Assembly (NCBI GenBank): GCA_026004595.1
Contig: BPJL01000006.1
Coordinates: 12,299-76,298, forward strand
Length of the DNA: 64,000 nt
Source: Patescibacteria group bacterium
Lineage (GTDB): Bacteria > Patescibacteriota > WWE3 > UBA101185 > UBA10185
Direction of reading: 5' to 3'
Made by a program: the position numbers and the translations under genes. Below the pieces are notes generated by a model. It was not told where the DNA came from. It ran no database searches and saw nothing but the letters and a program-made list of their open reading frames with translations. Numbering within the stretch: position 1 is the stretch's first letter; the number at the start of each line of letters is the position of its first letter. Shown piece after piece: positions 1,048 to 59,191 of the stretch.

Positions 1048-1679
1048 TTGTTTTTATATCTTCTAATTACTCCGGTTACCACTCCTTGAATGCTTAGGCT
1101 TCTCGAGTCGACGTAGAGCGGATCCATATTTTTGTTGGCAGGTTGAAGTCTTATTTTTCCATCTTTCTCTCTATAAAAAGTTTTGAGTGTAGCGAATTCA
1201 TTGTCTATCAAGGCCACAACTATCTGACCATCCGACGCTGTATTTTGTTGTTGTATTACAACATGATCGCCGTCAAAAATTCCCATATCTATCATTGAGT
1301 CTCCCTTTACTTGCAAAACGAAGCATCGTTTATGCTTGGAGACAATGTCCGAGCTGACTGTAACGGTTGCAAGAGGGTTTTCTACAGCTTCAATAGGTTC
1401 GCCGGCGGCTATGTATCCAACCAACGGGAGCTCAACAGCGGAAAGATTGGAATTGAAAGAGTGGTCCAGTATCTCTATTCCTCTAACAGAGCCTTCATAT
1501 TTTTTTATCATTCCCTTTTTCTCCAGAGCTTGTATGTGCTCATGCACTGTTGCTAGTGAAGAAAGACCCATAGAATTGGCAATTTCCTGTAAAGTAGGTG
1601 AGTGGCCGTTGACCTGGATGTACTGGGAAATAAAATCTAAAATTTGCTTCTGCTTTTTATAAAGTGTTACGGGGCTCAT
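1044..1679 (-). CDS. lexA: LexA transcriptional repressor (SOS regulator)
   Basis: N-terminal winged-helix (LQEIANSMGLSSLATVHEHIQALEKKG), Ala-Gly cleavage site (GYIAAGEPIEA), S24 peptidase Ser/Lys motifs (VKGDSMID ... ATLKTFYRE). RBS GGAGGG upstream. Divergent from uvrB. Confidence 0.9.
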   Translation of the reverse strand: MSPVTLYKKQKQILDFISQYIQVNGHSPTLQEIANSMGLSSLATVHEHIQALEKKGMIKKYEGSVRGIEILDHSFNSNLSAVELPLVGYIAAGEPIEAVENPLATVTVSSDIVSKHKRCFVLQVKGDSMIDMGIFDGDHVVIQQQNTASDGQIVVALIDNEFATLKTFYREKDGKIRLQPANKNMDPLYVDSRSLSIQGVVTGVIRRYKNN

Positions 1680-1849
1680 TAAAAACCCTCCTTGGCCTGA
1701 AAATATTTACGGATTTTCTTTGGTTTTTAGCTATTTTCATAGTACCGAAAAATATACGAAGATGTCAAGACCCTGTTTTCTAATACCGTTAGATATACAA
1801 GGCAGTAGGTAAGAGCGAGCCAAAGAAAACCCAAAAATATGCTACAATT

Positions 1850-3850: not shown

Positions 3851-3898
3851 ATCTTCCGAGAATCAGGCTTTTTATTCGTACTTAGGTTCAGTCCATAT

Positions 3899-6130
3899 TT
3901 GCGGGTGCTAGTTTCGTCTTATTTATTGACCCTCGTCTGTCTGTCTAATAGAATCGATGAAGAGCAGATGAGAAATACTCCAATCAAAGTTGGTAAATCC
4001 TTAATCAAAGCTGTTAAAGCCATAGGTTACTTTTTCCTTTACATTTACGATGGCTTGCTCATATACATTAAAAAGTTCAAATACGCCGGCGTAAAGAAAA
4101 AAGCGGCCTTCCGCGGGATTAAAAGTTTTGCTAATGGGTTAGTTTCATTTTTTAGAAAAGGCGCCGGTATTTGGTTGGAATTAATCAAATGTTCAAAAGC
4201 GTTTATCGCTGGCTTTTTAGCGTCTGTAATATTCATTTTTATCCCGTACATAGTAAATACGTGGTTTAGAGAACTCCCAAGTCCAGAAATGCTTTTAGTA
4301 GCCCAAAAGTACGGCGCCACCCAAATTTTTGACAGAAACGGCGTACTACTTTACGAAATCTATGCAGATAAAAAATACGAACCAGTAAAGCTGGAACAGA
4401 TTCCTAAAAATGTTGTTAACGCCACCATAGCTGTTGAGGATTCCCTTTTTTACCTGCACAAAGGGCTAAGGCCTGACAGCATAATTCGTGCTTTTACCAA
4501 AACTTTCTTCAACGGCAGTAAACAGGGAGGGTCAACGATCACTCAACAATTAGTTAAAAATGTTCTTCTTACCCCCGAGAGAACTTTTTCCAGAAAGGTA
4601 AAAGAAGCAGTTTTATCTGTAATGGTTGAGGCAAAATATTCCAAAGAGGAAATACTTGAGATGTATTTGAATAATATTTCTTATGGCGGCAACGCTTGGG
4701 GTATCCAATCGGCCTCTCAAAAGTATTTCGGGAAGAATGTTTGGGAGTTAAACCTGGCTGAGGTTTCAATGTTGGCGGGGCTTCCTTCCTCTCCCTCTCT
4801 ATACTCTCCTTTTAGCGACATTCAAAAGGCTAAAGATCGTCAGAAGTATGTTCTAAAAAGAATGGCCGGTTTGGGTTACATAACTTTAGAAGAAGAGCAA
4901 GAGGCGTTGGTAGAGGATTTAGTTCTTGTTCCTCAAAAAGATTTTATTGCCGCCCCGCATTTTGTGAATTTTGTACGGCAGGGGTTGGAAAAAATGTATG
5001 GGAGCCGCTTTGTGAATGGAGGGGGGCTTAAAGTGGTCACGACACTAGACTATTCCCTCCAGCAAAAAGCGGAAGAAATCGTTTATGATGAGGTACGAAA
5101 GGGCGCCGCGTACGGTTTTTCCAACGGCGCCGCTGTGGTTTTGGATGTGAAGAACGCCGAGATGTTAGCGTATGTGGGATCGGCGGATTATTTTTCGCCG
5201 AAATGGGGCGCTTTTGATGTTGTTACGGCTTTAAGACAGCCCGGCTCCTCTATTAAACCGGTTACATATTCTTTGGCTTTTGCTTCCGGAATGACTCCAG
5301 CGACGACAATTCAGGATTCTCCGGTTGTTTACACTTTTCAAGGCGCGGAAGCTTACAGGCCAGTTAATTATGATGGAAAGTTTCACGGAACTGTTACCTT
5401 AAGGGCGGCTTTAGCCAATTCCTATAATGTTCCTGCAGTAAAATTAGCTAAGATTGTGGGGCCCGACGACATTGTTGCGCTCGGAAGGGATATGGGCCTT
5501 ACAAATTGGGAGGTAGATGGTTCATATGGGCTTTCAATTACCCTTGGAGGCAAGGAAGTAAGGCTTTTGGATTTGACCAATGTATATGCAACTCTCGCCC
5601 GAAAGGGATCTTTTGTTGAACCGTCCTTCCTTTTATCTGTTAGAGATGGGAGGGGGTATGAGATTTATTCAAAAAAGCAATTTTATCCTAAACAGGTGAT
5701 TTCTGAAGAAGTGTCCTATTTGATTTGGCATATACTCTCCGATAATGATGCGAGAATTCCAGCTTTTGGAACAAGAAATTTTCTAAGTCTTTCGGGTTAC
5801 AAGATAGCTGCAAAAACAGGGACCACAGATCAAATAAAAGACAATTGGACTTTCGGATACACCCCAAGTTACGTAGTTGGAGTATGGGTTGGCAACAACG
5901 ACAACACGCCGATGAACAGACGCATGGCTTCGGGTTTGACAGGCGCCGCCCCGATTTGGAATAGGATAATGGCCGAGGTTCTTCACGGGAAACCAAATGA
6001 AATTTTTGATACGCCAAGCGGAGTGTTCGAAAAGAAGGACGAAAAATGCGGCATGACGGAGGTTTTTATAAAAGGATCGAAAGTGCCTGAAAATTTGTGT
6101 TCCAAAGTGGGAAAAGAAAAGAAGGACTGA
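3899..6130 (+). CDS. Class A penicillin-binding protein (bifunctional transglycosylase/transpeptidase)
   Basis: GT51 motifs (EDSLFYLHKG, GGSTITQQLVKN), transpeptidase SSIKP, SYN and KTGT motifs, N-terminal TM. An alternative start lies at 3968. Confidence 0.85.
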   Translation: MRVLVSSYLLTLVCLSNRIDEEQMRNTPIKVGKSLIKAVKAIGYFFLYIYDGLLIYIKKFKYAGVKKKAAFRGIKSFANGLVSFFRKGAGIWLELIKCSKAFIAGFLASVIFIFIPYIVNTWFRELPSPEMLLVAQKYGATQIFDRNGVLLYEIYADKKYEPVKLEQIPKNVVNATIAVEDSLFYLHKGLRPDSIIRAFTKTFFNGSKQGGSTITQQLVKNVLLTPERTFSRKVKEAVLSVMVEAKYSKEEILEMYLNNISYGGNAWGIQSASQKYFGKNVWELNLAEVSMLAGLPSSPSLYSPFSDIQKAKDRQKYVLKRMAGLGYITLEEEQEALVEDLVLVPQKDFIAAPHFVNFVRQGLEKMYGSRFVNGGGLKVVTTLDYSLQQKAEEIVYDEVRKGAAYGFSNGAAVVLDVKNAEMLAYVGSADYFSPKWGAFDVVTALRQPGSSIKPVTYSLAFASGMTPATTIQDSPVVYTFQGAEAYRPVNYDGKFHGTVTLRAALANSYNVPAVKLAKIVGPDDIVALGRDMGLTNWEVDGSYGLSITLGGKEVRLLDLTNVYATLARKGSFVEPSFLLSVRDGRGYEIYSKKQFYPKQVISEEVSYLIWHILSDNDARIPAFGTRNFLSLSGYKIAAKTGTTDQIKDNWTFGYTPSYVVGVWVGNNDNTPMNRRMASGLTGAAPIWNRIMAEVLHGKPNEIFDTPSGVFEKKDEKCGMTEVFIKGSKVPENLCSKVGKEKKD

Positions 6131-6170
6131 AATACATCTTCACAAACCCGAACTTTTACCGTAAAATCAT

Positions 6171-9170
6171 TTGGTCATGGAAAACACCTCGCTTACACAT
6201 ATTTTGGTCAGGGGCGCCCGCCAACATAATCTGAAGAATATAGATTTGGATATCCCAAAAAATAAGATGGTTGTCTTTACGGGAGTTTCGGGATCGGGGA
6301 AGTCCTCTTTAGCTATGGATACAATTTACGCCGAGGGGCAGAGGCGTTACGTTGAAAGTTTGTCGGCCTACGCTCGTCAGTTTTTGGGCGTTATGGACAA
6401 GCCTGATGTGGACAAAATAGAAGGACTTTCACCAGCAATAGCAATAGATCAGAAAACGACTTCAAAAAATCCAAGATCTACGGTTGGTACTATTACCGAG
6501 ATTTATGATTATCTTAGGCTTCTTTATGCTCGAATAGGACACCCCCACTGTCCTCAATGTGGAAGGGAGATACAAAGACAGAGTTCAACCGAGATTGCCC
6601 AGACAATCTTGGATTTGATCTCCGGTTACAAAGATTTTAAATCAGAGAAGGGGACGAGGTTTTTTATTTATTCCCCGATTGTTAGAGATAGAAAGGGAGA
6701 ATATTCTGCTCTTTTTGAAAATCTCAGGAAGCAGGGAGTGCTTCGCGCTAGAGTGGATGGCGAAGTTATGAGCTTAAAGGAAAAATTTGATTTGATAAAG
6801 ACCAACAAGCATACGATCGATGCTTTAATCTCAAGACATTCGGTAAATTCTAAAAAAATGGCTGACAGCGGCGAGGCTAAGAGTGTTTTTTCAGAGATTT
6901 TTCAATCGGTTGAAACCGCTCTTCGACTTAGCGGCGGAACAGTTATATTAAGCGTGATAAAGGGGAGCTCTTTTGATTTTCCTGAAAACCCTAAAGACAC
7001 CGAAGACCACCTTCTTTCCGAGAACTTCGCGTGCCCGGTTTGCAACATATCTCTTCCGGAGATTGAGCCCAGGACATTTTCTTTTAACTCACCGCACGGC
7101 GCATGCCCAGCTTGTGACGGTCTCGGGATGCAGTTAAAGGTTAATGAGGGCGCTGTTGTAAATCCCAGGCTTTCTATATCTGAGGGTGGAATTCTACCTT
7201 GGCAGAAACTTTTTGAGCATCAAACCTGGACGCAGAATGTGATAAAAAAAGTGGCTGAAGTTTATAATTTTTCTCTTGATAAACCCATAAAAGATTTGTC
7301 GGAAGAGGCGCGCAGAATAATAATGTACGGAGCCGGGGACAAAAGATTTCGAGTAACTTACAGAGGACAGAGTGGCCACGAGCATACATACGAGGCCGGG
7401 TACGAAGGTGTTGTTCCCAACTTAATGAGAAGGCATAGAGAAACCCAATCCGAATATATAAGAAATGAGATAGAGAAGTATATGGTGAACGAGGATTGTC
7501 CCGTATGCAAGGGGTCGCGCCTTAAAAAGGAATCTTTATCCATAGTGGTTGACTCAAAACCCATAACTGAAATCACAGAGGCGTCAATAAAGGAAAACAT
7601 TGAATGGATAAAAAAGCTTGATAAGGTACTTAATGAAAGGGAGCACAAAATAGCTGAAGGAATTCTCAAAGAAATAACTTACCGCCTCAACTTTCTAAAG
7701 GATGTCGGTTTGGATTATTTGACATTAGCCCGTTCCTCATCTCAACTATCAGGCGGAGAAGCTCAAAGGATAAGGTTAGCGTCCCAGATAGGTTCAGGTT
7801 TGTCGGGGGTATTGTACGTTTTAGACGAACCCTCAATAGGTTTGCATCAAAAGGATCAAGCAAAACTTATACGAACCCTGCACCAGCTCAGGGATTTAGG
7901 TAATACTGTGTTAGTTGTTGAGCATGACGCTGAAACAATGCTGGAAAGTGACTACATTTTTGATTTTGGACCTGGGGCAGGAGCAAATGGGGGTAAGGTT
8001 GTCGCGGAGGGAGCTCCTGAAGAGGTTATGAAAAATCCCAATTCTTTGACGGCAAAATATCTCTCCAAAAAACTGATAGTTGGAAAAAACGTAAAGAAAG
8101 ATCATGCGAAAGGCGAGATGTTTATGAATTTAGACTCTGTTTCTAAACCGGAAAAGTCGATGGAAGGAAAGAAGTTGATACTAAGAGGGGCGACAGGAAG
8201 GAATCTGAAAAACATAGATTTGACCATTCCTTTGGGAAAGTTTGTCTGTGTGACGGGGGTTTCGGGATCGGGAAAGTCGACATTAATAATGGATACTTTA
8301 TACCAAGCCCTGCGCCAAAGTTTCGGGTTAAAGCTTGAGCAAAGGCCCGAACCGTTCAGGGAGATAGAAGGGGCAGAGAATATTACGAACATAATCGCGA
8401 TAGACCAGAGTCCAATCGGAAGAACCCCAAAGTCGAATCCTGCAACGTATACCAAAGTGTTTGATCACATACGCGAACTTTTTTCACAAACCCAGGAAGC
8501 CAGAGTAAGGGGCTACGGACCAGGACGATTTAGTTTCAATGTGAAGGGTGGAAGGTGTGAGGCCTGTGGGGGAGAGGGCCAAATTAAGATAGAGATGCAG
8601 TTTATGCCCGATGTTTATGTTAATTGTGAAGTTTGCCAAGGAAAGAGGTATAACAGAGAGGCTCTTGAAATTTACTACAAAGGTAAAAATATCGCAGATG
8701 TTTTGGATATGACGGTTGAAGAGGGGATGACATTTTTTGAAAATGTTCCTCAAATTCGAAGACGAATAGAAACCTTGTACGATGTTGGGTTAGGCTACAT
8801 TAAACTTGGTCAGCCGGCTCCAACCTTGTCGGGAGGAGAGGCTCAGAGAGTGAAGCTGGCTTTAGAACTATCCAAGAGGGCAACCGGAAGCACATTTTAT
8901 ATTCTAGATGAACCCACAACAGGGCTGCACTTTGCCGATTTGGAAAATCTAATCACAATCTTCAGAAGGCTTACCTCCAGAGGGAATACAGTTGTAGTTA
9001 TAGAGCACAATTTGGATGTTATAAGCAATTGTGACTACGTTATTGATATGGGTCCAGAAGGGGGAGAAGACGGCGGAAGAATTATTTTTCATGGAACTTT
9101 AGATGAGCTAAAAAATCACAAAACATCTTATACGGCCGAGGCGTTAAGAGGGTATTACAAGAACCGGTAG
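6171..9170 (+). CDS. uvrA: Excinuclease ABC subunit A
   Basis: Two ABC ATPase modules (GVSGSGKSSLA, GVSGSGKSTL), LSGGE signature motifs, CxxC zinc fingers (CPVC, CEAC, CEVC). Confidence 0.95.
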   Translation: MVMENTSLTHILVRGARQHNLKNIDLDIPKNKMVVFTGVSGSGKSSLAMDTIYAEGQRRYVESLSAYARQFLGVMDKPDVDKIEGLSPAIAIDQKTTSKNPRSTVGTITEIYDYLRLLYARIGHPHCPQCGREIQRQSSTEIAQTILDLISGYKDFKSEKGTRFFIYSPIVRDRKGEYSALFENLRKQGVLRARVDGEVMSLKEKFDLIKTNKHTIDALISRHSVNSKKMADSGEAKSVFSEIFQSVETALRLSGGTVILSVIKGSSFDFPENPKDTEDHLLSENFACPVCNISLPEIEPRTFSFNSPHGACPACDGLGMQLKVNEGAVVNPRLSISEGGILPWQKLFEHQTWTQNVIKKVAEVYNFSLDKPIKDLSEEARRIIMYGAGDKRFRVTYRGQSGHEHTYEAGYEGVVPNLMRRHRETQSEYIRNEIEKYMVNEDCPVCKGSRLKKESLSIVVDSKPITEITEASIKENIEWIKKLDKVLNEREHKIAEGILKEITYRLNFLKDVGLDYLTLARSSSQLSGGEAQRIRLASQIGSGLSGVLYVLDEPSIGLHQKDQAKLIRTLHQLRDLGNTVLVVEHDAETMLESDYIFDFGPGAGANGGKVVAEGAPEEVMKNPNSLTAKYLSKKLIVGKNVKKDHAKGEMFMNLDSVSKPEKSMEGKKLILRGATGRNLKNIDLTIPLGKFVCVTGVSGSGKSTLIMDTLYQALRQSFGLKLEQRPEPFREIEGAENITNIIAIDQSPIGRTPKSNPATYTKVFDHIRELFSQTQEARVRGYGPGRFSFNVKGGRCEACGGEGQIKIEMQFMPDVYVNCEVCQGKRYNREALEIYYKGKNIADVLDMTVEEGMTFFENVPQIRRRIETLYDVGLGYIKLGQPAPTLSGGEAQRVKLALELSKRATGSTFYILDEPTTGLHFADLENLITIFRRLTSRGNTVVVIEHNLDVISNCDYVIDMGPEGGEDGGRIIFHGTLDELKNHKTSYTAEALRGYYKNR

Positions 9171-9174
9171 TTTA

Positions 9175-10896
9175 CTAACGAACCTTAATAGTGTAACTTT
9201 TTCCGCTAAAGTCTTTCACCGCGAATTGATCTGCATTTTTTTCTAAATATATTGATGCTTTCTGACTTGGTGCTAAGATCTTTCCTTGCAAATCGTATAT
9301 AAAATATCCGCTGGTGTTATCTATAATGTATCTGGTCTGTCCTTGTATAAGTTTGATGGGGTTAAAATTAAGTGCTTTTTTAATGGTAATTTGCGGGGTG
9401 GCGTCGCTGTCGTTTTTCGATGTCGCTGCGAAATCAATGTCAACTAGTTTTTCATTGTCGGAATATCTGTATGCGCCAGCTGGGTAGGGATACTCTGAAC
9501 TTTTGCCTTTTATCACAAAAGCAAAGTGGTTGGTGTCAAGTTTAGTGAAATAGTCAGTACCGGATGTGGTTCCCCATGTAGGATCAACCTGAACCCAACC
9601 ATAGAACGGATCGTAGTATTCTGCCCATGAATGAAGGGTGTCCCCGCCTTTTAGACTTATTGAGATGGGTTTTTCAATATTATCATTTGTGAAAGCATAA
9701 CCCTCAATTTCTCGTGAAGGTATACCCATTGCTCTTAAGGTTCCCACAAATAGATCGGAAAACTCCATACATGTAAAAGACCCCCTTTGGGTAAGAGCTG
9801 CTACCGCGCCTTTTCTTTCAACTGTAGTGTTTTCAGCCGCAGAAGTATCATAGGTTAGGTTGGATGTTATATAGTCGTATACTCGTTTGGCATTTTGAGA
9901 TACGTTCAGCTCTGGATCAAAAAGTGAATCGGCAAAACTTTTTATTTCCTCATTTTTCGACTCCCAGTATTTTTGATTTTTTGCGTACTCTTTTACAAGC
10001 GACTTAGGCAAATTCTCAATTTTTCCACCTAAGTCGGTATTTATTTGCCGTCCAAGTATTTTTGCGGATCCTGTTAGGGTGATTTCCAATTTGCTTCTGG
10101 GTCCGACCCAAAACAGGGCAAGAGCATTCCCATCCCCATCAAGCCTGATCTTTCTTGGTCGGGGAGTAATGTTCTCGTATTTAACTTGTTGTATATTAAT
10201 TATATCCGGGGGAAGGGCTACTTCGTACACTGATCCGATTATTCTATTATTTTCCAGTTGGTATTTAATTCTAAAGTTTAACGATTGGTATTTGCCGAAT
10301 GCCGCGGTAATGCCTTTTGAAGGATAGTTTTCTTTTACGAACGTATATACCCTTTTCCCATCCTCGTATTTTTCGGTTGCTGGGTTCGGAGAGACAAAAA
10401 TTTTTGGCCCCATAGAGTCGGGGACGGAAAGTACGATATTGTAAATTGTTGTGGTTTCGGGAGCGTCTATCCCCTGTATATATATGTTCCACACATCTCC
10501 GACTTTTGAAGCTATTCCTTTTGTCTTGTAGGTGAGATTAACAATATTTTGCTTTCCCTCTCCAATTGAGTATGTTGAAAACGGAACAATAACTGTTGTT
10601 TCATCTTTTGAGGGATTTTCTTTTCTAACCTCGGCTTTTTTTCCATTTGTTTGAGCTATGATATCGTATATGTCCATATATTTTGTCTTAAAAGAATAGG
10701 TTGTTGGTACTACGTTATTTTTAAGACTAGTTATAATTGTGTTTTGGGTGACAAAGGTTTCTCCCGAGCTCTGCACGTCATATCTTATGTCGTAATTTAT
10801 TATGAAGTTTTCCTCGGTTTGAGAATAAGCGGATTTACCAAGTGCTGTAAGCAAAAATAGTGCAACTGCCGCCTTCAAAAAAGCGTTTTTAAACAT
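9175..10896 (-). CDS. Secreted transglutaminase-like (Cys-His-Asp) domain protein
   Basis: Signal peptide MFKNAFLKAAVALFLLTALGKSAYSQ. Core GSFTCMEFSDLFVGTLRAMGIPSREIEGYA ... HSWAEYYDP ... GWVQVDPTWG carries the transglutaminase-like catalytic triad. Confidence 0.7.
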   Translation of the reverse strand: MFKNAFLKAAVALFLLTALGKSAYSQTEENFIINYDIRYDVQSSGETFVTQNTIITSLKNNVVPTTYSFKTKYMDIYDIIAQTNGKKAEVRKENPSKDETTVIVPFSTYSIGEGKQNIVNLTYKTKGIASKVGDVWNIYIQGIDAPETTTIYNIVLSVPDSMGPKIFVSPNPATEKYEDGKRVYTFVKENYPSKGITAAFGKYQSLNFRIKYQLENNRIIGSVYEVALPPDIINIQQVKYENITPRPRKIRLDGDGNALALFWVGPRSKLEITLTGSAKILGRQINTDLGGKIENLPKSLVKEYAKNQKYWESKNEEIKSFADSLFDPELNVSQNAKRVYDYITSNLTYDTSAAENTTVERKGAVAALTQRGSFTCMEFSDLFVGTLRAMGIPSREIEGYAFTNDNIEKPISISLKGGDTLHSWAEYYDPFYGWVQVDPTWGTTSGTDYFTKLDTNHFAFVIKGKSSEYPYPAGAYRYSDNEKLVDIDFAATSKNDSDATPQITIKKALNFNPIKLIQGQTRYIIDNTSGYFIYDLQGKILAPSQKASIYLEKNADQFAVKDFSGKSYTIKVR

Positions 10897-10936
10897 GGGT
10901 AAATGCTACAATAACTTCGTGATTTCCTCAAATATT

Positions 10937-12286
10937 ATGGAAAAAGTCAAAAAGCTGCCTCAAACCCCAGGAGTCTACATCTACAAAGATAAAGGCGGGG
11001 AGGTTATATACGTGGGAAAAGCGAAAAATCTCAAATCTCGTGTGTCTTCGTATTTTCGGATTAATCTTGACCGCCGATCAAAAACATTCGCTCTGGCGCA
11101 AAATATCCACTCAATAGATTACATAAAAGTTGAAAGTGAGCTGGAGGCATTAATATTGGAGGCGGAACTCATTAAAAAATACCTGCCCATTTATAATGTA
11201 AATTTGAAAGATGACAAATCTTTTCTATACATTGGGATCAGAAATTCTAAGGAAAGTGTGGGAGGTAAAGTAATTTCTATCCCCACTGTTGAAACGTTTA
11301 GAAAAGGTAACGCCGAAAGATACAAGTATCGTTATGGTCCTTTTCCTGACGGCAAGACTGTTAAACAGTTAGTGAGGATGTTGAGAAGAATGTTTCCCTT
11401 TAAGGATTGCAGTACCTCGAAGTTTTGCAGATATAAGAAATTGAATACCCCCTGCCTGTGGGGGCACCTAAATTTGTGTCCAGCGCCATGTGTGTATGAA
11501 GAGGCAGTAATACCGGTTTGCAAAAGCAATATCAGATCTATTAAAAATATTCTTTCGGGGGGAACCAGCAGAATTATTGAAAAATACAACCGTCAAATGA
11601 AGAGATACGCCGCTGCCAGAGATTATGAGAGCGCGGCATCCTTGAGGGACCTGCTTCAGAGGTTTGAGTATGTCAGACAGTCGTTTCGTTTACCCAGAGA
11701 TTACATTGAAAATCCTTATCTTATCGATGATCTGGCCAAAGAGGCCCTTGAAAATATAATATCTTTTTTGCCATTTCTAAAAGAAATACCGACAAGAATA
11801 GAGTGCTATGATATTTCTAACATATCCGGTAAGGAAGCAGTAGGTTCTATGGTCACTGCGATTAACGGAAGGATAGATAAAAGCGGTTATAAGAGGTTCA
11901 GGATTAGGACAAAACAAACTCCCGACGATTTTTTAATGCTTTATGAAGTTCTGTATAGGAGGCTTTCGCACGAGACGGATGAAAAGAAAAAGAGCTGGGG
12001 GCTTCCTTCTTTAATAGTTTTGGACGGCGGGAAGGGGCAGCTTTCTTCGGGTCTTAAGGTTTTAGAAAAGTTGAATCTTGATGTTCCAATTATTGGTATT
12101 GCCAAACATCATGAAACAATAGTGTATAACGATAACGGGTTTCATGAAACCACTCCCGCCCTTGATCTGCCCGGTATGAGACTGCTTTTGAACTTAAGAG
12201 ATGAAAGCCACAGGTTTGCACAAAAATATCACCATGCCCTTCGTAGCAAGCAAGTATTTGGAAGGATAGTACAAAAGAAGCTATAA
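10937..12286 (+). CDS. uvrC: Excinuclease ABC subunit C (short form lacking the C-terminal HhH domain)
   Basis: GIY-YIG motif (GVYIYKDKGGEVIYVGKAKNLKSRVSSYF), C-terminal endonuclease motifs (LIVLDGGKGQL, RDESHRFA). Listed ORF begins at 10895; ATG at 10937 (MEKVKK) avoids overlap with the divergent gene. Confidence 0.9.
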   Translation: MEKVKKLPQTPGVYIYKDKGGEVIYVGKAKNLKSRVSSYFRINLDRRSKTFALAQNIHSIDYIKVESELEALILEAELIKKYLPIYNVNLKDDKSFLYIGIRNSKESVGGKVISIPTVETFRKGNAERYKYRYGPFPDGKTVKQLVRMLRRMFPFKDCSTSKFCRYKKLNTPCLWGHLNLCPAPCVYEEAVIPVCKSNIRSIKNILSGGTSRIIEKYNRQMKRYAAARDYESAASLRDLLQRFEYVRQSFRLPRDYIENPYLIDDLAKEALENIISFLPFLKEIPTRIECYDISNISGKEAVGSMVTAINGRIDKSGYKRFRIRTKQTPDDFLMLYEVLYRRLSHETDEKKKSWGLPSLIVLDGGKGQLSSGLKVLEKLNLDVPIIGIAKHHETIVYNDNGFHETTPALDLPGMRLLLNLRDESHRFAQKYHHALRSKQVFGRIVQKKL

Positions 12287-19782: not shown

Positions 19783-20967
19783 ATGCAAGTTAAACCTGAG
19801 ATAGAACGTTTTGCAAAAATAAGGGTTGTTGGTGTCGGGGGTGCCGGAGGTAATGTAATCAACTCAATGATAGAGTCTAATCAGATAAAAGGTGTGGAGT
19901 TTGTTGCTATAAACACAGACGCCCAGGATTTATCCATAAATAAGGCTGTAATAAAGATACCGATAGGTCAAGAGATAACTCAAGGTTTGGGGGCAGGTTC
20001 AAATCCCGAAATTGGAAGAAAGGCGGCCGAGGAGTCTGTGGATGTGATAAGGAGCAATCTTGAGGGAGCAAACATGGTTTTTATTACCGCTGGATTAGGC
20101 GGGGGAACGGGCACTGGTGCTTCTCCGGTTGTGGCTAGGATAGCAAGAGAATCGGGCGCTTTGACAATAGGTGTGGTAACCAAGCCTTTTAATTTCGAAG
20201 GAATTCAAAGGATGCGAGCGGCAGACAGGGGAATAGCCGAGCTAAAAAAAGAAGTAGATGCATTGATAACAATACCGAATCAGAAACTTTTGGAGGTGGC
20301 TGATGAAGACATGTCTATACTTGAAGCATTTAGGCTTTCGGATAGTGTTCTCAATCAGGGTGTACAGGGAATTTCGGATTTGATTGTTATGCCCGGCCTA
20401 ATCAATGTCGATTTTGCTGATGTTAAAACTATAATGAAAGACGCCGGAACAGCGCTTATGGGAATCGGAATCGGCACAGGAGAAAATAGAGCAGAGGTAG
20501 CGGCAAGGGCAGCGATTTCCTCTCCCCTGCTCGAACAATCTATCGAAGGTGCTAAAGGCATTCTATTTAACATTTCAGGCGGTCCCGATCTTACAATGAG
20601 GGAAGTAGACCGAGCGGCTAATATAATAAGGAGCATTGCAAGCGAAGAAGCCGAAATCATATTTGGAACTTCTATCGATGATGAACTTACAGGTCAGTTG
20701 AAAATTACGGTTATTGCTACGGGTTTTGAAGTTCCTGAAGAAGACGATTCAGTTGCTGGATACGTTGAGAAACACTATGCTCAAATTCAAAGAAAAGATA
20801 AACCCGAACAGTCTCCGTATCAGTTTTCTTCTCAAGGACAGAAAACAGAGACTTCGAGTGAAGAAAAAACGCCAAAGCTGCCTTCAGAAATGTGGAAGCC
20901 CGAGGATGCAGAGGAAGGAGATTACGGAACCGGTTTTGATATCCCAACTTTTCTTAGGCAAAAATGA
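19783..20967 (+). CDS. ftsZ: Cell division GTPase FtsZ
   Basis: [11 protein letters not shown] and tubulin signature [15 protein letters not shown]. Confidence 0.95.
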
Positions 20968-21160
20968 AAAATTTCGCAGATTTTATTTTCTTGCGTATTT
21001 ACGCTAATTTAAAAAAACTGCCCCGCGATAATTCAACAAATTCTCCTAATACTACAATGCGCATTGCCTTGTGTGATAGACAACTTTCTGCTTTTATTAA
21101 GTAAGGCAGTATTTATTTAAATAACATTTCGCGTTCCGACAATATTTGTGAGGCAGTGAA

Positions 21161-23698
21161 ATGTTGCCGGTTCGTGAGATGAATAATCTTATGAGCAGTT
21201 TTTTATACCGTGAAGACCCGTCTGTATTTTCTAGAAATACGGATATAGAATTTTCTGAAAATGCGAGAAAAATTCTTGAAAAAAGATATCTAAGAAAAGA
21301 CGAGAACGGTGTAGTTGTCGAAACCCCCGAACAAATGTTTGAAAGGATAGCTAATGTTATTGCTGAACCGGATAGACCCTACGCAGATGTTGAAAGATCA
21401 AGAACCGAATTTTACAATTTGATTTCTTCTAAGAAGTTTTTTCCCAACTCCCCAACATTTACAGGAGCTGGTACACCTCTAGGTCAGCTCGCTGCCTGCT
21501 TCGTTTTGCCCATATCTGATGATATGGGGAAAGAGAAGGATGGTATTTTTTCAACACTCAGGGTGGCTTCATTAATTCAGCAAAGCGGGGGTGGGAACGG
21601 CTTTTCGTTTTCTAGATTAAGACCTAAAGGTTCCAGAGTTAGGGCAAGCAATGGTATAGCTACAGGTCCCGTAGGTTTTATTAGAGTTTACGATGCCGCG
21701 TTTGGTGAAATTGCTCAGGGAGGTGTAAGGAGAGGGGCAAACATGGGAGTTCTTCGCGTTGACCATCCCGATATAAGAGAGTTTATTGAGTGTAAGTCTG
21801 TGGAGGGAAGGGTTTCAAATTTCAATTTATCAGTTGCGGTGACTGATAAATTTATGGAAGCTGTCAAAAATGATGAAACTTACGAACTGATTGATCCCCA
21901 TACTTTAAAAGTAACTGAAACTCCCAAGGCAAGAGAAATTTTTGACCTAATTGTTGAAAGTGCTTATAGAAATGGTGAGCCTGGGGTTTTGTTTATAGAC
22001 ACCGCAAACAGACAAAATCCTGTTCCCCATCTGTACGAACTGGAGGCCACAAACCCCTGCGGTGAGCAGTGGCTTGGCCCATATGAAAACTGTTGCTTGG
22101 GATCAATAAATTTGGCCGAACATTTGACAGCGGAGGGAAAGCTGGATTGGGAAGAGTTGAGAAAAACAATAATTTCTTCCACAAGATTCTTGGATAATGT
22201 TGTTGAGGCGAATAGGTACATTCCAGCAGTTCCTGAAATTAAAGAAGCGGCAATGGATGTCAGACGAATCGGCCTTGGCTTTATGGCGCTTGCCGACGCG
22301 ATGTATTCAATGGGTATAAGATATGGCAGTGACGAAGGACAAGAATTTGCCGCACAGGTTTCTGAGTTCATAAGATACTATTCCATGAAGACCTCAATAG
22401 AGTTGGCGAAGGAAAGAGGTAGTTTCAGGAAAATTAGAGGCAGTATTTATGATCCCGAGAATCTTAGATGGACTCCGCCCAAACCTCTTAAGGAATATAC
22501 AAGAGATTTTGGGCGACCTTCGATAGATTGGGCCTCTGTTATAGAAGGAATAAAAATGTACGGAATAAGAAATGGCGCTCAAACTACTATAGCCCCAACA
22601 GGGACAATATCAACCGTAGCGGGCGTTGAGGGGTATGGATGCGAGCCTGTTTTTGCTTTGGCTTACTACAGAAACGTTTACCAATCGGCCGGGGACGAGG
22701 GCAAAATGACTCTAACCTACGTAAGCCCCTTCTTCCAAAAAGCTCTTGATAAGTTGAATCTGTCGGAAGAGGCGAAGATAAAAATCATAGAAAGTGTTAT
22801 AGAAACAGGAACGTGTCAAAACATAACGGAACTCCCCCAGCATATTAGAAATACCTTTGTTGTTTCTGCAGACATAAAACCCGAAGAACATATAATGATG
22901 CAGGCGGCAATTCAGGCCTTTGTGGATAATTCTATTTCTAAAACTTGTAACTTCCCAGAGAATGCTACCAAAGAAGATGTTGCCAAAGTTTATATGCTTG
23001 GGTGGGAGATGGGCTGCAAAGGTTTGACAGTTTACGTTACTGGTAGCAGACAAGAAGTTGTTCTCGAGACTAAGTCAACAAAGGTACAAAAAAGTGAAAA
23101 AGAGATGCCGGAGCCTGTAAATAAAGAAATAGTTTTGACAGACAAACCCGCAGAGCATGTTTTGGTAATGAGAGGGTACAAACTCAATGGAGCTACATAC
23201 AAAGTGAAAACGCCTCAGGGGAATGCATTTATCACAATTAACAAAGACGAAACAGGTAGACCGCTTGAAGTTTTCTTGAATGTTGGCAAGGCCGGAAGTG
23301 ATGTTGCCGCTTTAGCAGAAGGGTTGGGTAGGCTTTTGTCAGGGTGGCTTAGAATGCCTAACTTTAGTTTTGAAGTTGTGAGGGAGATTATAGTTCAGCT
23401 GGCGGGGATTGGAGGATCGAAATCGATCGGTTTCGGTAAGGATAGAGTAAGTTCACTGCCTGATGCTGTGGCAAAAGTGCTCGCAGATGAGTTCGGTTTT
23501 ACTGTAAAGGCGAATGGATCCAACGGAAATGATTACCTGGCGGAGAGTAAAGGTGCGGTGAAAGAGCGGGTCAATTCTAGACAGGTGGGTTTTCAGGCCT
23601 ATTCTAACACCGACATGTGTCCCGAGTGTGGCAACTACACTTTAGTTCTTGAAGAAGGGTGCTCCAAATGCTACCAATGCGGATTTAGCCGATGTTAA
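21161..23698 (+). CDS. nrdJ: Adenosylcobalamin-dependent (class II) ribonucleoside-diphosphate reductase
   Basis: Class II RNR active-site motif [22 protein letters not shown]-terminal Cys zinc ribbon ([22 protein letters not shown]). Confidence 0.9.
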
Positions 23699-23713
23699 TG
23701 GTATTATCTTCTT

Positions 23714-24265
23714 ATGAAGATATATACTAGAGAAGGCGATTCGGGGTTCTCTTCACTTATAGGTTCAAAGAAAAAGATAACCAAGTCCGACTCTGTTTTC
23801 GACCTTTTAGGACTTTGTGATGAGATAAACGCCCTTTTGGGATGTATTTTGGCTGATAATAAAAAAAACGCGGAGTCAGCCTTGCTTGAAACAATTCAGT
23901 CTGATCTTTTTTATATAGGTGCTTATATCGCGGGTTTAAAGCCTTCCCCCCAAGACAAATCAGAATGGGAGGAGAAGGTAAGTAGGATGGAGAGGAAAAT
24001 GGATCAGTATTCAGCAAAATTGTCGGCGATAAAATCATTTATACTTCCCGGCGGGACTAGACCGGCTTCCGAGATACATCTCGCGAGAGCAAGGGTTAGA
24101 ACCCTGGAACGTGGTTTAGTCTCGTATGTAAACCGAGGTAAGGGAGAATCGTTGAAGTTTATACTCCCATACATAAACCGCTTATCCGATTTATTGTTTA
24201 TAATGGCTAGGTACGTAAATAAAACTGCAGGAAAAGAGGAGAGGTTGTGGAGGTATAAAAAATGA
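23714..24265 (+). CDS. PduO-type ATP:cob(I)alamin adenosyltransferase
   Basis: N-terminus MKIYTREGDSGFSSLIGSKKKITKSD...DELNALLG matches the PduO-type ATR hallmark (M-x-IYT-K/R-x-GD-x-G-x-T-SL). Confidence 0.8.
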   Translation: MKIYTREGDSGFSSLIGSKKKITKSDSVFDLLGLCDEINALLGCILADNKKNAESALLETIQSDLFYIGAYIAGLKPSPQDKSEWEEKVSRMERKMDQYSAKLSAIKSFILPGGTRPASEIHLARARVRTLERGLVSYVNRGKGESLKFILPYINRLSDLLFIMARYVNKTAGKEERLWRYKK

Positions 24266-24417
24266 GAAAAAACTATATTTTGTTAATTTTACTTGTGTTC
24301 GTAATGTCTGCACTAGTCGCCCTTCTTGTTTACCGCGCCCACAAAAATGATATCTATTTTGAATCTCAAAATAGGCCATCTGAACCAGAGGGCTCTTTAG
24401 AAGTACTCGAAATTTGA
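24262..24417 (+). CDS. Small (51 aa) single-TM protein, hypothetical
   Basis: ATG overlaps the ATR stop (ATGA); MRKNYILLILLVFVMSALVALLVYRAHKND...; below the ORF-track size cut-off. Confidence 0.3.
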   Translation: MRKNYILLILLVFVMSALVALLVYRAHKNDIYFESQNRPSEPEGSLEVLEI

Positions 24418-27302
24418 TAAAATCTCTTTGTTCTATGCCTAAAAAAGATGATAAAAACCAAAATCTAACTATCCCGCAAATGGAGGAACGTGTACTTGAT
24501 TTTTGGTTGGAAAATAACATTTTTGAGAAATCTGTCCAGCAAAGATCGGAAAAGGACCTCTATGTTTTTTATGATGGTCCGCCGTTTGTTTCGGGGCTTC
24601 CTCATTACGGTCATTTGTTAAGCTCTATAGCTAAGGATGTTGTGCCAAGGTACTGGACTATGAAAGGAAAAAAGGTCGAGCGTGTTTGGGGATGGGATGC
24701 GCATGGCTTGGCTGTGGAGAATAAAGTCCAAAAAAAGTTTGGTATCAAAAATAGACGCGATATTGAAAAATTTGGAGTAGAGAGGTTTACAACTGAGTGT
24801 TACAAATACACGCGCGAAACGTCAGCCGAATGGGATTGGTATATTAATAAAATTGGCCGATGGGTTGATATAAAAAACGCTTACAGAACAACTGACCAGA
24901 AATATATGGAGTCGGTGATGTGGACTTTCAAGCAGTTATATGATAAAGGTCTTGTCTATGAGGGTATAAGAACGTCTCTTTATTGTACTAAGTGCGGAAC
25001 CCCGGTATCCAACTTTGAAATCGCAATGGATAATTCTTACAAGGATGTGGAAGACCCCGCAATAACTGTGAAGTTTAAGATAACGAGCGTCGGTGAGTTA
25101 AATGGGGCTTATGCATTGGCTTGGACGACCACTCCATGGACTATACCTTCCAATAGAGCGCTTGTAGTTGAACAGGGCGCTCCCTACGTACTTGTTGAAT
25201 CCGAGGGCGAACGTTATATTGCAGCTGAAGCGAGAGTATCAGAGATTTTTAAAGGATGCGACTTTAAACAGCTTAAGAAAATTGAGGGAAAAGATTTGAT
25301 TGGCTTGAAATACAAACCCCCATTTAATTTTTATTCTTCTAAAGAAGGGGAGTATGAAATTTACCACTACGAAGGAATGGCAAATATGGAGGAGGGCACG
25401 GGTGTTGTCCACAGCGCCCCAGGCTTTGGTGAAATTGATTCTGAAATGGGAAAACATTTTGGTCTAACCTTGATGATGACTTTAGATGAAGAAGGAAAAT
25501 TTTTACCGGGTGATTTAGAAGAAAACCCTTACGCGGGTGTGTTTTACAAGGATGCGGATCCGCTTTTAATAGAAGATCTTAAAGCTAAAAACCTTCTTTT
25601 TAAAAACGAGAAAATTATACACAGATTTCCATTTCATGATAGGTGTGACACTCTATTGATACAAAGAGCACAGCATAGTTGGTTTATAAATGTTGCCCTG
25701 TTAAAAGATAGGATGTACGAGCTTAACGAGAGGATAAATTGGGTGCCGGATCACTTAAAATATGGAAGGTTCGGCCAAAACATTAAGCAACAGCCCGATT
25801 GGTGCATTTCTCGAAATAGATATTGGGCTACGCCTATGCCTATTTGGGAAGCGGACGACGGGGATAGGATAGTGGTGTCATCAATAAAGGAAATAGAGAA
25901 TTTGTCAGGCCAAAAAGTTGAGGATCTTCACAGGCCATTTATTGATAGAATTGTGATAAAAAAAGGCGATAAAGAATATCGGCGACGACCTGAAGTTCTT
26001 GATTCATGGATGGAGGCTGGGTCAATGCCTTGGGCGCAAATACATTACCCTTTTGAAAACAAAGAAAAATTTGAGGCAAACTACCCGGGTGATTACATTG
26101 TAGAGTATATTGCTCAAGTCCGTGCTTGGTTTAACGTTATGCATATTCTTTCCACTGCGATGTTTGATTCCAATTCCTTTAAGAACGTTATATCAACAGG
26201 TGTTATGGCGGGAACCGACGGCAGAAAAATGAGCAAGACTTTCAACAATTACACCGATCCTAAAGAGGTCTTGGAAAATTACGGTGGAGATGCCTTGAGG
26301 TTGTATTTGATGGGTTCTCCACTTATGGTTGGGGAAAATGCAAATTTTGAAGAATCTGAGCTTAGGACAAAGCTTAGAAACGTTCTTAATCCGCTTTGGA
26401 ATTCACTGAAATATTTTGAAACCTATGCCGATTTTCATAGGTGGGATGAAAAATTGTATGAAAATTCAGATCATATATTAGACAAATGGATTGTTGCTCG
26501 AATTCATGAAGTAACAAAATATGTGAGCGAAAATATGGAAAAGTACCTGGTGCCTCCGGTAGTTAGGGTGATAGAAGAGTTTGTTGATGATCTTTCAAGG
26601 TGGTACATAAGAAGGTCAAGGGAAAGAATCTCTTCGGGCGACAACAAGGCGTTAAGCACATTGTTTAGTGTGTTGCTGACCTTTTCTAAAGTCGCGGCTC
26701 CGGTAATACCATTCATTGCCGAGAGCATGTATCTAGTCTTGAAAAGGTTTTCGGAAAAAGAGAAGGCTGAGTCAGTTCACCTTTGCTATTTCCCTAGCTA
26801 CGATTCCTCTGTGATAAAAGACTGTGCCGAATTGATTTCGGGTATGAAAAACGTAAGAGAGTATGCCTCATTAGGATTAGCTCAAAGGACTGAACATAAA
26901 ATATCTGTAAGACAGCCCCTTCTTTCAGTAACTATACCAGAGAAACTTCCAAAAGAACTTGAGCGACTGTTGATTGATGAGCTGAATGTGAAGAAGGTAA
27001 ATGTGGCTGTATCGCCCGAACCTTTGCAAATGAGTTTAGTCGCGAAACCGTCCTTAGTAAAGATTGATCTTACAATCAATGAAGAACTTAAGTTGGAGGG
27101 AATGTCCCGCGAGTTTGTGAGAAAAGTTCAGGATTTAAGAAAAGAGATGGGGCTTAAAGTCGGGGATATTATCGAAGTCGGTTATGTGTCCGATCCTGAT
27201 ACCGAAAAAATGATGAGTATTCATGGAGACGAAATTAAAAGGAAAATACAAGCGTCAAAAATATCTCCCGCGCCCGAATTTTCAATCCGAAAAGTCAGCT
27301 AA
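24414..27302 (+). CDS. ileS: Isoleucyl-tRNA synthetase (type 2, eukaryote/archaeal-like)
   Basis: YVFYDGPPFVSGLPHYGHLL (HIGH region characteristic of type-2 IleRS), KMSKT (KMSKS) motif, 962 aa. Confidence 0.9.
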   Translation: MIKSLCSMPKKDDKNQNLTIPQMEERVLDFWLENNIFEKSVQQRSEKDLYVFYDGPPFVSGLPHYGHLLSSIAKDVVPRYWTMKGKKVERVWGWDAHGLAVENKVQKKFGIKNRRDIEKFGVERFTTECYKYTRETSAEWDWYINKIGRWVDIKNAYRTTDQKYMESVMWTFKQLYDKGLVYEGIRTSLYCTKCGTPVSNFEIAMDNSYKDVEDPAITVKFKITSVGELNGAYALAWTTTPWTIPSNRALVVEQGAPYVLVESEGERYIAAEARVSEIFKGCDFKQLKKIEGKDLIGLKYKPPFNFYSSKEGEYEIYHYEGMANMEEGTGVVHSAPGFGEIDSEMGKHFGLTLMMTLDEEGKFLPGDLEENPYAGVFYKDADPLLIEDLKAKNLLFKNEKIIHRFPFHDRCDTLLIQRAQHSWFINVALLKDRMYELNERINWVPDHLKYGRFGQNIKQQPDWCISRNRYWATPMPIWEADDGDRIVVSSIKEIENLSGQKVEDLHRPFIDRIVIKKGDKEYRRRPEVLDSWMEAGSMPWAQIHYPFENKEKFEANYPGDYIVEYIAQVRAWFNVMHILSTAMFDSNSFKNVISTGVMAGTDGRKMSKTFNNYTDPKEVLENYGGDALRLYLMGSPLMVGENANFEESELRTKLRNVLNPLWNSLKYFETYADFHRWDEKLYENSDHILDKWIVARIHEVTKYVSENMEKYLVPPVVRVIEEFVDDLSRWYIRRSRERISSGDNKALSTLFSVLLTFSKVAAPVIPFIAESMYLVLKRFSEKEKAESVHLCYFPSYDSSVIKDCAELISGMKNVREYASLGLAQRTEHKISVRQPLLSVTIPEKLPKELERLLIDELNVKKVNVAVSPEPLQMSLVAKPSLVKIDLTINEELKLEGMSREFVRKVQDLRKEMGLKVGDIIEVGYVSDPDTEKMMSIHGDEIKRKIQASKISPAPEFSIRKVS

Positions 27303-39753: not shown

Positions 39754-41512
39754 ATGAATGAGAACCGCATCTCCAACAAGGAAGTCGTAGCTCAGCTTAA
39801 AGAGGTGCTTGCGGCCATGGATGTGAAGAATTTTAATGTTTTTAAGGTTCGAGCGTATCAAAATGCGATAGCTATACTAGATAACTTAACGGTTTCAATT
39901 TATGACCTTTGGGAAAACGGCCGACTCAAAGAAATTCCCGGTGTGGGGTCTGGTATATATTCACACCTTGATGAGTTGTTTAAAACAGGGTCGGTTAAAG
40001 AGTTTGAAGCCATAAAAAAAGGCCTTCCAGAAGGGATGTTCGGCCTTATTGGAATACGAGGAATAGGTGCGAGAAAGGCTTTCAAGTTGGCCACTGCTTT
40101 TAAACTTAACGATAGGAATACGGCTGTAGAAAAAGTAAAAGAGCACGCAGAAAAAGGAGACATTCAAAAACTTGAGGGGTTTGGTGAAAAATCCGAGGCC
40201 GATATTCTTGAGGCGATAGCGCAGTTTAAGATGACGAAGAATGAGAAACAGCGCGTCTTGTATTCAAAAGCCGAGGAAACAGTAGAAAGAATTTACACTT
40301 ATATGAAAAAGCTGGATTGTGTAGATGAAATAGAAGCTGCGGGTTCTTTTAGAAGGAAAAATGCAACTATAGGAGATCTTGATATTCCTATTGCAACAAA
40401 TGAACCGGAGAAAGCAATAGATCATTTTTTGATGTTTCCAGAGATTGATGAGGTTCTTGTGAAGGGAGATAAAAAGTGCAGCGTGGTTCTCAAAAATGAT
40501 TTGCAGGTTGATATAAGAGTTTCTACCCCCCAGGCCTACGGTGCCATGTTGCAGTATTTTACTGGTTCCAAACAGCATAACATCCTTCTTAGAAACTTTG
40601 CGCTCGCAAAGAATATGTCGTTGTCCGAGTATGGGATCAAAAAAGGCGGCGATACATACGAGTTTTCAGACGAACCGTCTTTTTATAAATTTTTGGGGCT
40701 TCCTTACATAGAACCTGAACTAAGAAACGGATCAAACGAAATAGAAGCGGCGTTAGAAAATAAACTTCCGAAGTTGATTGAAATTGGAGATATAAGGGGC
40801 GAAGTCCATACTCACACTACTGATTCTGACGGAGTTAATTCTTTGGACGAGATGGTTGCAGCGGCAATATCTTTGGGGGTACCAGTATTTGGGTATTTCC
40901 GATCACGCGCCAAGCGTTACCTCACGTGGGTATAGAGAAGTATCAGAGATAATTAAGAAGAAAAGAGAAGCTATCCAAAAAATAAATGAAAAGCAGGATT
41001 CTATCAAAGTATTCTTCGGTTATGAGGTGAACATCTTGGCAGACGCAACCCTTGGCCTACCTGACGAAATACTGGCAGAATTGGACTATGTAGTGGCTTC
41101 GATTCACACTTCCTTCAATCAAGACAGAGAGCAGATTACCGACCGACTGCTTGCGGCAATAGAGAATCCATATGTAAATATTATCGGACATCCTTCGGGG
41201 CGTCTGCTAAACGAAAGAGACCCGATAGATCCTGCTTGGGACAAGATATTTTTGGCGGCTCGAGATAATGGCAAAATACTGGAGATAAACGCCCAACCCG
41301 ACCGTCTTGATCTTCCAGACGATTTGGTGAAAGAAGCAATACAATGGGGAGTTAAGTTAGTGATAAGTACTGATGCTCATTCAGTAGATCAGTTTTCTTT
41401 TATGAAATATGGTATTTTCAACGCACGCAGAGGGTGGGCGGAGAATAAAAATATAATCAACACGTTGCCGTATGGAGATTTTGTAAAAGAAGCGAACATA
41501 CGCCTTAAGTGA
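39754..41512 (+). pseudogene. DNA polymerase X family (Pol-beta-like nucleotidyltransferase plus PHP phosphoesterase), interrupted by a +1 frameshift in G5 run 40875-40879 (pieces 39754-40935 and 40856-41512)
   Basis: Piece 1 has HhH motifs, the Pol-beta NT motif GSFRRKNATIGDLDI and PHP motif I (GEVHTHTTDSDG). Piece 2 in the +1 frame continues PHP (YQYLGISDHAPS ... ASIHTSF ... STDAHS). Removing one G restores ...AAAISLG-YQYLGISDH... Confidence 0.8.
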
Positions 41513-58869: not shown

Positions 58870-58870
58870 T

Positions 58871-59182: not shown

Positions 59183-59191
59183 AAACTTGAA

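Follow-up and report, generated by a model that had tools for sequence, protein, structure and literature searches.

In Lactobacillus delbrueckii, a vitamin B12 auxotroph, an nrdJ-cbrS-cbrT-pduO cluster led to the prediction, and then to the demonstration, of the B12 importer ECF-CbrT, and the PduO encoded there has been described as the enzyme that makes adenosylcobalamin (AdoCbl) for the ribonucleotide reductase (RNR) NrdJ (Santos et al. 2018, PMC5997447). Here we describe a related locus in a 64-kb stretch of DNA (hereafter ‘the window’, to which our scans of this genome were confined) of a 768,150-bp contig (JGI 3300029893, Ga0246236_1000002) from a Patescibacteria (WWE3-like) metagenome-assembled genome (MAG), in which a gene for a class II RNR is followed immediately by one for a PduO-type ATP:cob(I)alamin adenosyltransferase. 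We consider it very likely that the two genes form an adenosylcobalamin module in this reduced-genome bacterium. The logic of such a pair is already published for lactobacilli, and the adenosyltransferase is already annotated as ‘ATP:cob(I)alamin adenosyltransferase’ at NCBI, so that the locus is an instance of an understood arrangement. The two genes at its centre are the following:

21191-23698, + strand: nrdJ, class II AdoCbl-dependent RNR (Pfam, TIGR02504, alignment to 1XJE)
23714-24265, + strand: gene for a PduO-type ATP:cob(I)alamin adenosyltransferase (PF01923, TIGR00636, PDB matches, AlphaFold2 (AF2) fold)

The L. delbrueckii cluster, for which a 2009 study by Rodionov and colleagues is reportedly also a source, resembles the window locus in that an AdoCbl-dependent RNR and a PduO-type adenosyltransferase are encoded in one same-strand cluster. 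As published, however, it carries CbrT, the S-component of the energy-coupling factor (ECF) importer for B12, between nrdJ and pduO, whereas the window locus has no transporter gene and instead has a 51-aa single-pass membrane protein downstream and an RNA leader upstream. The 51-aa protein is encoded by the only membrane open reading frame (ORF) of the cluster and, with one transmembrane segment and no family match, it does not qualify as CbrT or another ECF component. The PduO proteins of pdu operons and human MMAB also belong to the same family and fold (template-modelling (TM) scores of 0.80-0.84) and provide an adenosyltransferase beside an AdoCbl-dependent client enzyme, which is a diol dehydratase or a mutase in those systems and an RNR here. 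Unlike them, the window locus has no reactivase, PduS-type reductase, MeaB-like G-protein or C-terminal DUF336 domain. The searchable literature yielded nothing on a linkage of B12 and RNR in WWE3 or other members of the candidate phyla radiation (CPR), and the paper on the complete WWE3 genome makes no mention of cobalamin or ribonucleotide reductase.

A first-pass annotation of the window had read three ORFs at 21161-23698 (+, 845 aa), 23714-24265 (+, 183 aa) and 24262-24417 (+, 51 aa), positions that we could reproduce, and had taken the first of them for a B12-dependent RNR. This identity was borne out by matches to PF00317, PF02867 and PF12637 and by a score of 664.6 bits for TIGR02504 (NrdJ_Z), against a curated cutoff of 399.95, while the class I alpha model TIGR02506 reached only 351 bits on the same protein. 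In the numbering of the 845-aa protein (from ATG 21161), which we use for all NrdJ residues, the RNR all-alpha domain covers residues 30-108, the barrel 111-625 and the TSCPD domain (PF12637) 679-776, and behind the latter follows a Cys-rich tail with C820, C823, C834, C837, C840 and C845 (CxxC...CxxCxxC...C, residues 820-845). A TSCPD domain and a Cys-rich zinc-finger tail are features of many NrdJ proteins. The nearest solved structure is T. maritima NrdJ (1XJE, E 1e-107), with whose C134, N320, C322, E324 and C333 the residues C113, N298, C300, E302 and C311 align; we take the established roles of these residues to hold, namely C134/C333 as the redox pair, C322 as the thiyl-radical Cys and N320/E324 as its Asn/Glu partners. 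With all five catalytic residues present, the large protein is, as judged from its sequence, a class II (AdoCbl-dependent) RNR of the NrdJ type. Genes resembling nrdB, nrdF or nrdG, which would encode a beta subunit or an activase, were not found among the ORFs of the window.

The start codon assumed for nrdJ, in contrast, had to be moved. At the codon corresponding to ATG 21161 relatives have AGG or AGA, and we have dropped it as a start because it is not kept; the conserved start is ATG 21191 (MSSFLY..., 835 aa), where gene callers also begin the orthologs. ATG 21161 seems plausible only because the loop of the leader hairpin described below, GAGGCAGUG, mimics a Shine-Dalgarno sequence. The 15-nt spacing between the two genes was read correctly, the TAA stop of nrdJ lying at 23696-23698 and the next ATG at 23714.

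The 183-aa product of this next gene had been assigned to the PduO type on account of an N-terminal MxIYTRxGDxGxTSL hallmark. A profile search, which might have pointed to a different family, returned PF01923 over the whole length of the protein (151.7 bits, cutoff 24) and TIGR00636 (PduO_Nterm, 144.3 bits against a cutoff of 108.45), residues 4-180 aligning with profile positions 1-171 of 171. The hallmark is indeed present in the N-terminus, MKIYTREGDSGFSSL, but with the T of the motif replaced by S: the ATP-binding motif T-[KR]-x-G-D-x-G-x-[TS] is found as T5-R6-E7-G8-D9-S10-G11-F12-S13 (GDSGFS, where GDxGxT is usual). In an alignment of 18 members from several phyla, the invariant columns are all retained in the window protein (Y4, T5, G8, D9, G11, D36, F109, R125, R129, E132, R133 and the stretch NRLSDLLF), and the same holds for every residue of the ATP and corrinoid sites that does not vary in that set; the counterparts of D36, F109, R125, R129, E132 and R133 (D35, F112, R128 and R132 in L. 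reuteri PduO, R186, R190 and E193 in the human enzyme) were assigned from motif context and from query and chain ranges. The N-terminus is full-length, with no truncation. Matches to 37 distinct PDB sequences include B. subtilis YvqK, L. reuteri PduO, human MMAB and M. tuberculosis PduO. The AF2 model (mean predicted local distance difference test score, pLDDT, 88.8) shows a five-helix bundle (helices 27-48, 55-72, 79-102, 116-140 and 145-171), for which Foldseek gave TM-scores of 0.80-0.84 to the PduO-type adenosyltransferases 3CI1/2NT8, 2IDX/6D5K, 2ZHZ and 3KE5, among them L. reuteri PduO, MMAB and the M. tuberculosis PduO. Profiles, residues and predicted fold together support the reading of the protein as a PduO-type ATP:cob(I)alamin adenosyltransferase.

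The availability of homologous loci (designated by L numbers) allowed us to assess how stable the pairing is. In 11/11 PduO homologs whose neighbourhoods were looked up (40-68% identity), a class II RNR lies no more than about 0.8 kb upstream of pduO. Two layouts were seen. In type A, found in WWE3-like genomes including the complete genome CP006914, the order is ftsA-ftsZ-[RNR]-pduO-(small ORF)-ileS. In type B (L095, L016, L104 and L186, of which L016 and L104 came from general scans) the genes stand in other surroundings and in the order nrdR-nrdJ-pduO; canonical NrdR boxes precede them, and the NrdR scores 171.6 bits for TIGR00244. The distance between nrdJ and pduO is 9-15 nt in L016, L095 and L186 and about 470 nt in L104, and the type B PduO proteins are 39-45% (L016, L095, L104) or 43% (P0062 of L186) identical to that of the window. 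Type B clusters encode the same pair of a TSCPD-tailed NrdJ and PduO as the window but are headed by the gene for the NrdR repressor and by NrdR boxes, both of which the window lacks, a hairpin leader standing in their place. L016 (CAYUKU010000001.1) is labelled ‘uncultured Gammaproteobacteria’; this label appears doubtful because the locus is syntenic with the type B locus L095 over six genes. The layout of L095 is also that of L186 (protein identity 78% for NrdR, 81% for NrdJ and 64% for PduO).

Two type A loci, L097 (2647-4917) and L181 (2044-4353), encode an ATP-cone and RTPR-like class II RNR in place of the NrdJ type (TIGR02505, 308-314 bits), with pduO still downstream and the leader RNA still upstream. 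Because both flanking elements are kept, the gene order indicates that the RNR gene was replaced in situ; since pduO still stands behind the exchanged subtype, the linkage follows the cofactor requirement rather than one particular gene. In L181 the ileS neighbour has been lost and the linkage of RNR and pduO retained. Adjacency of nrdJ and pduO is not a general bacterial trait, as pduO lies beside an RNR gene in only 2/80 GTDB species-representative loci (a WWE3 genome and L016) and in 2/47 metagenome loci with enough upstream sequence. With some 800 genes in the genome, two that are single-copy would be expected to be immediate same-strand neighbours by chance in well under 1% of cases. Judging from these gene orders, the linkage is not a product of chance, and appears to be lineage-specific yet robust to replacement of the RNR subtype.

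In the mechanism that we propose, NrdJ would make deoxyribonucleotides from ribonucleotides in a radical reaction that is set off when the Co-C bond of adenosylcobalamin is cleaved homolytically. Its partner, the PduO-type enzyme, would bind cob(II)alamin and, once this has been reduced to cob(I)alamin, transfer the 5'-deoxyadenosyl group from ATP, in this way turning imported or inactivated corrinoid into the coenzyme that NrdJ needs. A direct hand-off of AdoCbl from PduO to NrdJ is conceivable. The genes from nrdJ to ileS follow one another at operon-like spacings (gaps of 15 nt and 17 nt on either side of a 4-nt overlap), internal terminator signals among them are not above chance, and nrdJ and pduO are most likely co-transcribed with the translationally coupled gene for the 51-aa membrane protein and with ileS. 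The transcript would begin with a 5' leader folding into a conserved hairpin, probably with a role in translation or mRNA stability. The first-pass annotation had called the pair a ‘self-contained’ unit of cofactor activation and enzyme; a functional pair is supported, but self-containment is overstated, as a reductant from cob(II) to cob(I) and an uptake route are still needed. Scavenging of corrinoids is a reasonable expectation for such a small genome.

Several observations weigh against this interpretation. No corrinoid transporter (Btu or ECF), cobalamin reductase or alternative RNR was found within the window, nor a cobalamin riboswitch or NrdR, and the salvage route is therefore one that we infer. 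The pair stands in a long run of housekeeping genes (the dcw cluster, ileS and rplU) that share its direction but are unrelated to it, so that inertia could explain part of the synteny. In L181, L183 and L184 a gene on the opposite strand lies between RNR and pduO, which means that co-transcription is not universal. Finally, the WWE3 clade closest to the window protein has T, A or S after R129, where most members have a second Arg (CRRxER becoming VRTLER). This last departure, together with the S for T in GDxGxT, might suggest a PduO fold without a role in adenosylation, the 183-aa protein being confined to carrying or chaperoning AdoCbl, or binding some other ligand. PduO-family proteins do act also as cofactor escorts, the human adenosyltransferase passing AdoCbl to methylmalonyl-CoA mutase. 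Nevertheless, the protein exceeds the equivalog-domain cutoff of TIGR00636 and combines a complete N-terminus with the full set of conserved ATP-site and corrinoid-site residues, and a chaperone role would supplement catalysis and not substitute for it. We regard a non-adenosylating protein as highly improbable.

The adjacency itself could also have been inherited as part of the gene order of a streamlined genome, in which long runs of genes share a strand, without any selection for co-expression, pduO having come to lie between nrdJ and ileS by chance. The flanking ftsA, ftsZ, ileS, LytR_C protein gene and rplU are functionally unrelated and yet equally syntenic, the insertions in L181, L183 and L184 are evidently tolerated, and most bacteria do not cluster their RNR and pduO genes. 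Inherited order does not readily account, however, for the recurrence of the pair in the wholly different nrdR-nrdJ-pduO context, for its persistence through replacement of the RNR by another AdoCbl-dependent subtype, for its presence in the published Lactobacillus cluster or for the loss of ileS in L181 while RNR and pduO stayed linked. We consider it decidedly unlikely, and retain the adenosylcobalamin module as the reading of the locus. The gene pair has confirmatory value: in at least two CPR-type lineages, the one gene for corrinoid handling that is visible is tied to an AdoCbl-dependent RNR. Should this RNR be the sole one of the cell, DNA synthesis in these episymbiotic or auxotrophic cells would depend on external corrinoids, a dependency that, if true, would be useful for cultivation attempts and for models of B12 cross-feeding.

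Two further features of the locus, the leader hairpin and the 51-aa microprotein, are conserved and previously undescribed, and of the two the hairpin is the better candidate for follow-up. They go beyond the known logic of the pair, although neither changes a major paradigm. In the region upstream of nrdJ we distinguish:

21125-21185, + strand: leader RNA hairpin (consensus fold, covariation, covariance model)
21055-21066, no strand assigned: 12-nt perfect palindrome CAATGCGCATTG, a possible operator at low confidence (direct reading of the letters)

In the roughly 90 nt before ATG 21191, DNA identity among relatives is 75-87%, compared with 74-80% for the coding sequence of nrdJ and 66-72% for that of pduO. 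The leader (61 nt) forms an imperfect hairpin, paired from about 21126 to 21180 and ending 5 nt before ATG 21191, with an invariant GCAGUG (21153-21158) in its apical loop. The RNAalifold consensus from nine lineages has 19 pairs. In these lineages 92.4% of cells are paired, against 35-56% when the partners are slid, and nine pairs are changed on both sides, against 3.1+-1.3 in shuffled alignments (0/500 reaching the observed value); the relatedness of the sequences inflates the shuffle statistics, and the control with slid partners keeps that relatedness. With ten lineages 91.5% of cells are paired and 10/19 pairs are changed on both sides. A covariance model, R1, built from the nine lineages scores the window leader at 75.2 bits on the + strand, compared with 32.6 for the - strand, a strand-specific signal that stems from the many G-U pairs. 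No further copy turned up in the window. Each type A locus with the leader has one copy, always 1-8 nt before the RNR start codon, before NrdJ and RTPR-like RNRs alike and also where the upstream gene is not ftsZ (L184). R1 also recovered L185, a lineage held out from the model, at 38.7 bits (E 1e-7) and with new compensatory pairs. In all, the leader is present in 10 WWE3-type lineages, whose RNR upstream regions lack NrdR boxes; it is absent in L012, and R1 has no significant match in the type B loci L095, L104, L016 and L186.

In the L185 locus (2442-4950), which comes from an assembly of 1.5x coverage, nrdJ is split into calls of 507 aa and 302 aa and its start has been called within the leader hairpin; the split is probably due to frameshifts in the assembly and the start to an error of the gene call, and the true ATG is likely at 2472.

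Conservation upstream of a gene may also reflect an element acting at the DNA level, such as a promoter with its operator, or a terminator of ftsZ, instead of a functional RNA. In favour of this view, an A/T-rich box (GTAWWWAWWT) and the palindrome are conserved just upstream of the leader, and the shuffle-based statistics are inflated by relatedness. Such an element would not be expected, however, to show compensatory changes on both sides in more than half of its pairs or an excess of pairing over slid partners with relatedness preserved, nor a strand-specific signal (75 against 33 bits) or a held-out lineage that fits the model with new compensatory pairs. A terminator is further argued against by the lack of a U-tract after the hairpin and by the way the leader keeps its place just before the RNR start codon even where the upstream gene is not ftsZ. 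We therefore hold a DNA-level explanation to be unlikely and a structured RNA to be the better account. The hairpin abuts the ribosome-binding region of nrdJ, suggesting a role in translation or mRNA stability, and it probably controls translation initiation or the stability of the message.

We found no paper describing an nrdJ leader RNA in the searchable literature, and no Rfam family matches the leader (E<=1, 20900-24500). Among the known cis-regulators of RNR genes are NrdR boxes, the cobalamin riboswitches that precede B12-independent RNRs and, in Mesoplasma florum, the 2'-deoxyguanosine riboswitch. Like these, the leader is a conserved cis element placed directly upstream of an RNR gene, where it could affect expression; it differs from them in being a single imperfect hairpin of about 57 nt that has no Rfam match, is not an NrdR box and is too small for a cobalamin aptamer. 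A bolder proposal would be that the leader represents an undescribed class of cis-regulatory RNA, either a translational operator bound by a protein or a small riboswitch, which replaces NrdR-box control of AdoCbl-dependent RNR(-adenosyltransferase) genes in WWE3-type CPR bacteria and has been kept despite exchange of the RNR, and in its widest version the microprotein would be a third component of the B12 module. This is a serious possibility, although we would stop a little short of calling it probable. In any case, a leader RNA specific to class II RNR genes offers a testable handle on the regulation of RNR in the CPR.

Other forms of control found less to speak for them. The NrdR box, defined as tandem 16-bp boxes (PMC13584703), was searched for as ACACWATATATWGTGT. 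With up to 3 mismatches it has no match anywhere in the window, while the positive controls L095 and L104 match, and the window also holds no ORF with the ATP-cone and Zn-ribbon of NrdR; as neither box nor nrdR is present in the window, we have rejected NrdR control of nrdJ. An Rfam scan of the window brought only 5 tRNAs to gathering score, and there is no B12 riboswitch before nrdJ or pduO, either at gathering score or at E<=1 (20900-24500). An alternative hairpin that would bury the AUG, as in a riboswitch-like two-state leader, is pronounced in no more than the four closest relatives; the other five show it weakly or not at all, and we do not claim it. The CAGUG of the leader loop recalls an iron-responsive element, but on our own inspection the flanking bases are unable to form the required 5-bp upper stem, and we regard the likeness as a coincidence. 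Promoter and terminator consensus scans gave match counts that were not above shuffled expectation and were left unused.

About 60 nt separate the palindrome CAATGCGCATTG from the leader hairpin downstream of it. L009 and L015 have variants in which the palindromic symmetry is preserved, and L097 has a different palindrome; the window contains a single further match to CAAYGNNCRTTG, at 63454, and this one is not palindromic. The palindrome is possibly an operator, a suggestion we make with low confidence. As an operator of a regulon, for example that of LexA, it does not hold up, since the window has no further palindromic copy and the surroundings of lexA and uvrB show nothing like it. In the same spacer between ftsZ and nrdJ, a 46-aa ORF at 20964-21104 (+) was called by JGI for the source contig only; no relative has such a call, and the ORF is probably spurious.

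Downstream of pduO the array continues with:

24262-24417, + strand: 51-aa single-pass membrane microprotein (orthologs in the same slot, dN/dS 0.09)
24435-27302, + strand: ileS, isoleucine--tRNA ligase (TIGR00392 783.5 bits, gene calls of 955 aa)

The 51-aa ORF, whose start overlaps the pduO stop in an ATGA and whose GGAGG Shine-Dalgarno sequence sits within the 3' end of pduO, had been noted as encoding a single transmembrane segment, and it turned out to be a real gene on the evidence of orthologs and dN/dS. It corresponds to NCBI locus tag KatS3mg101_0749, annotated as hypothetical. Orthologs of 38-51 aa, with starts that overlap or abut the pduO stop, occupy the same slot in L009, L101, L015/L007, L012 and L103; L099 lacks one, and the gap there is only 41 nt. 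Invariant residues include M1, K3, R25, A26 and D30, and a motif LLVYRAHxND is conserved. Compared with L009, dN/dS is 0.09 for the microprotein and 0.065 for pduO, and the other reading frames are closed by stops. The hydrophobic segment comprises residues 5-23 (Kyte-Doolittle 19-residue maximum 3.08), and there is no Pfam or NCBIfam match. In a database of 5.8 billion proteins the family amounts to about ten clusters, all ‘hypothetical’, under names that are only WWE3 bacteria, uncultured bacterium or the source MAG. By the measure of this conservation, the ORF is a genuine gene under purifying selection and restricted to WWE3-like genomes.

The ORF does not run to the start of ileS, as had been thought: the conserved ileS start, ATG 24435, lies 17 nt past its stop. 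Gene callers use this start (955 aa), and tblastn shows 72-89% identity from residue 1 onwards in relatives; TTG 24414, which overlaps the 51-aa ORF, is unconserved, and ATG 24435 is preferred to it. ileS is probably co-transcribed with the pair, of which it is a syntenic neighbour that stands functionally outside the B12 pair.

Elsewhere in the window, a compact block of DNA-repair genes at 1044-12286 adjoins the cell-division genes: lexA and uvrB are divergently oriented, next come a PBP1-type gene, uvrA and uvrC, and the dcw cluster lies directly downstream of the block. A PolX-type DNA polymerase is distributed over two ORFs that overlap by 80 nt, one with the polymerase core (HHH, palm and thumb) at 39754-40935 (+) and one with the PHP domain at 40856-41512 (+), for which a frameshift, a misassembly or a true split of PolX could be the reason. 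Three consecutive large ORFs at 57289-62307 (+; 526, 646 and 306 aa) have no Pfam match, and the part of the window that holds them has its highest GC content (up to 0.477, compared with an overall value of about 0.41).

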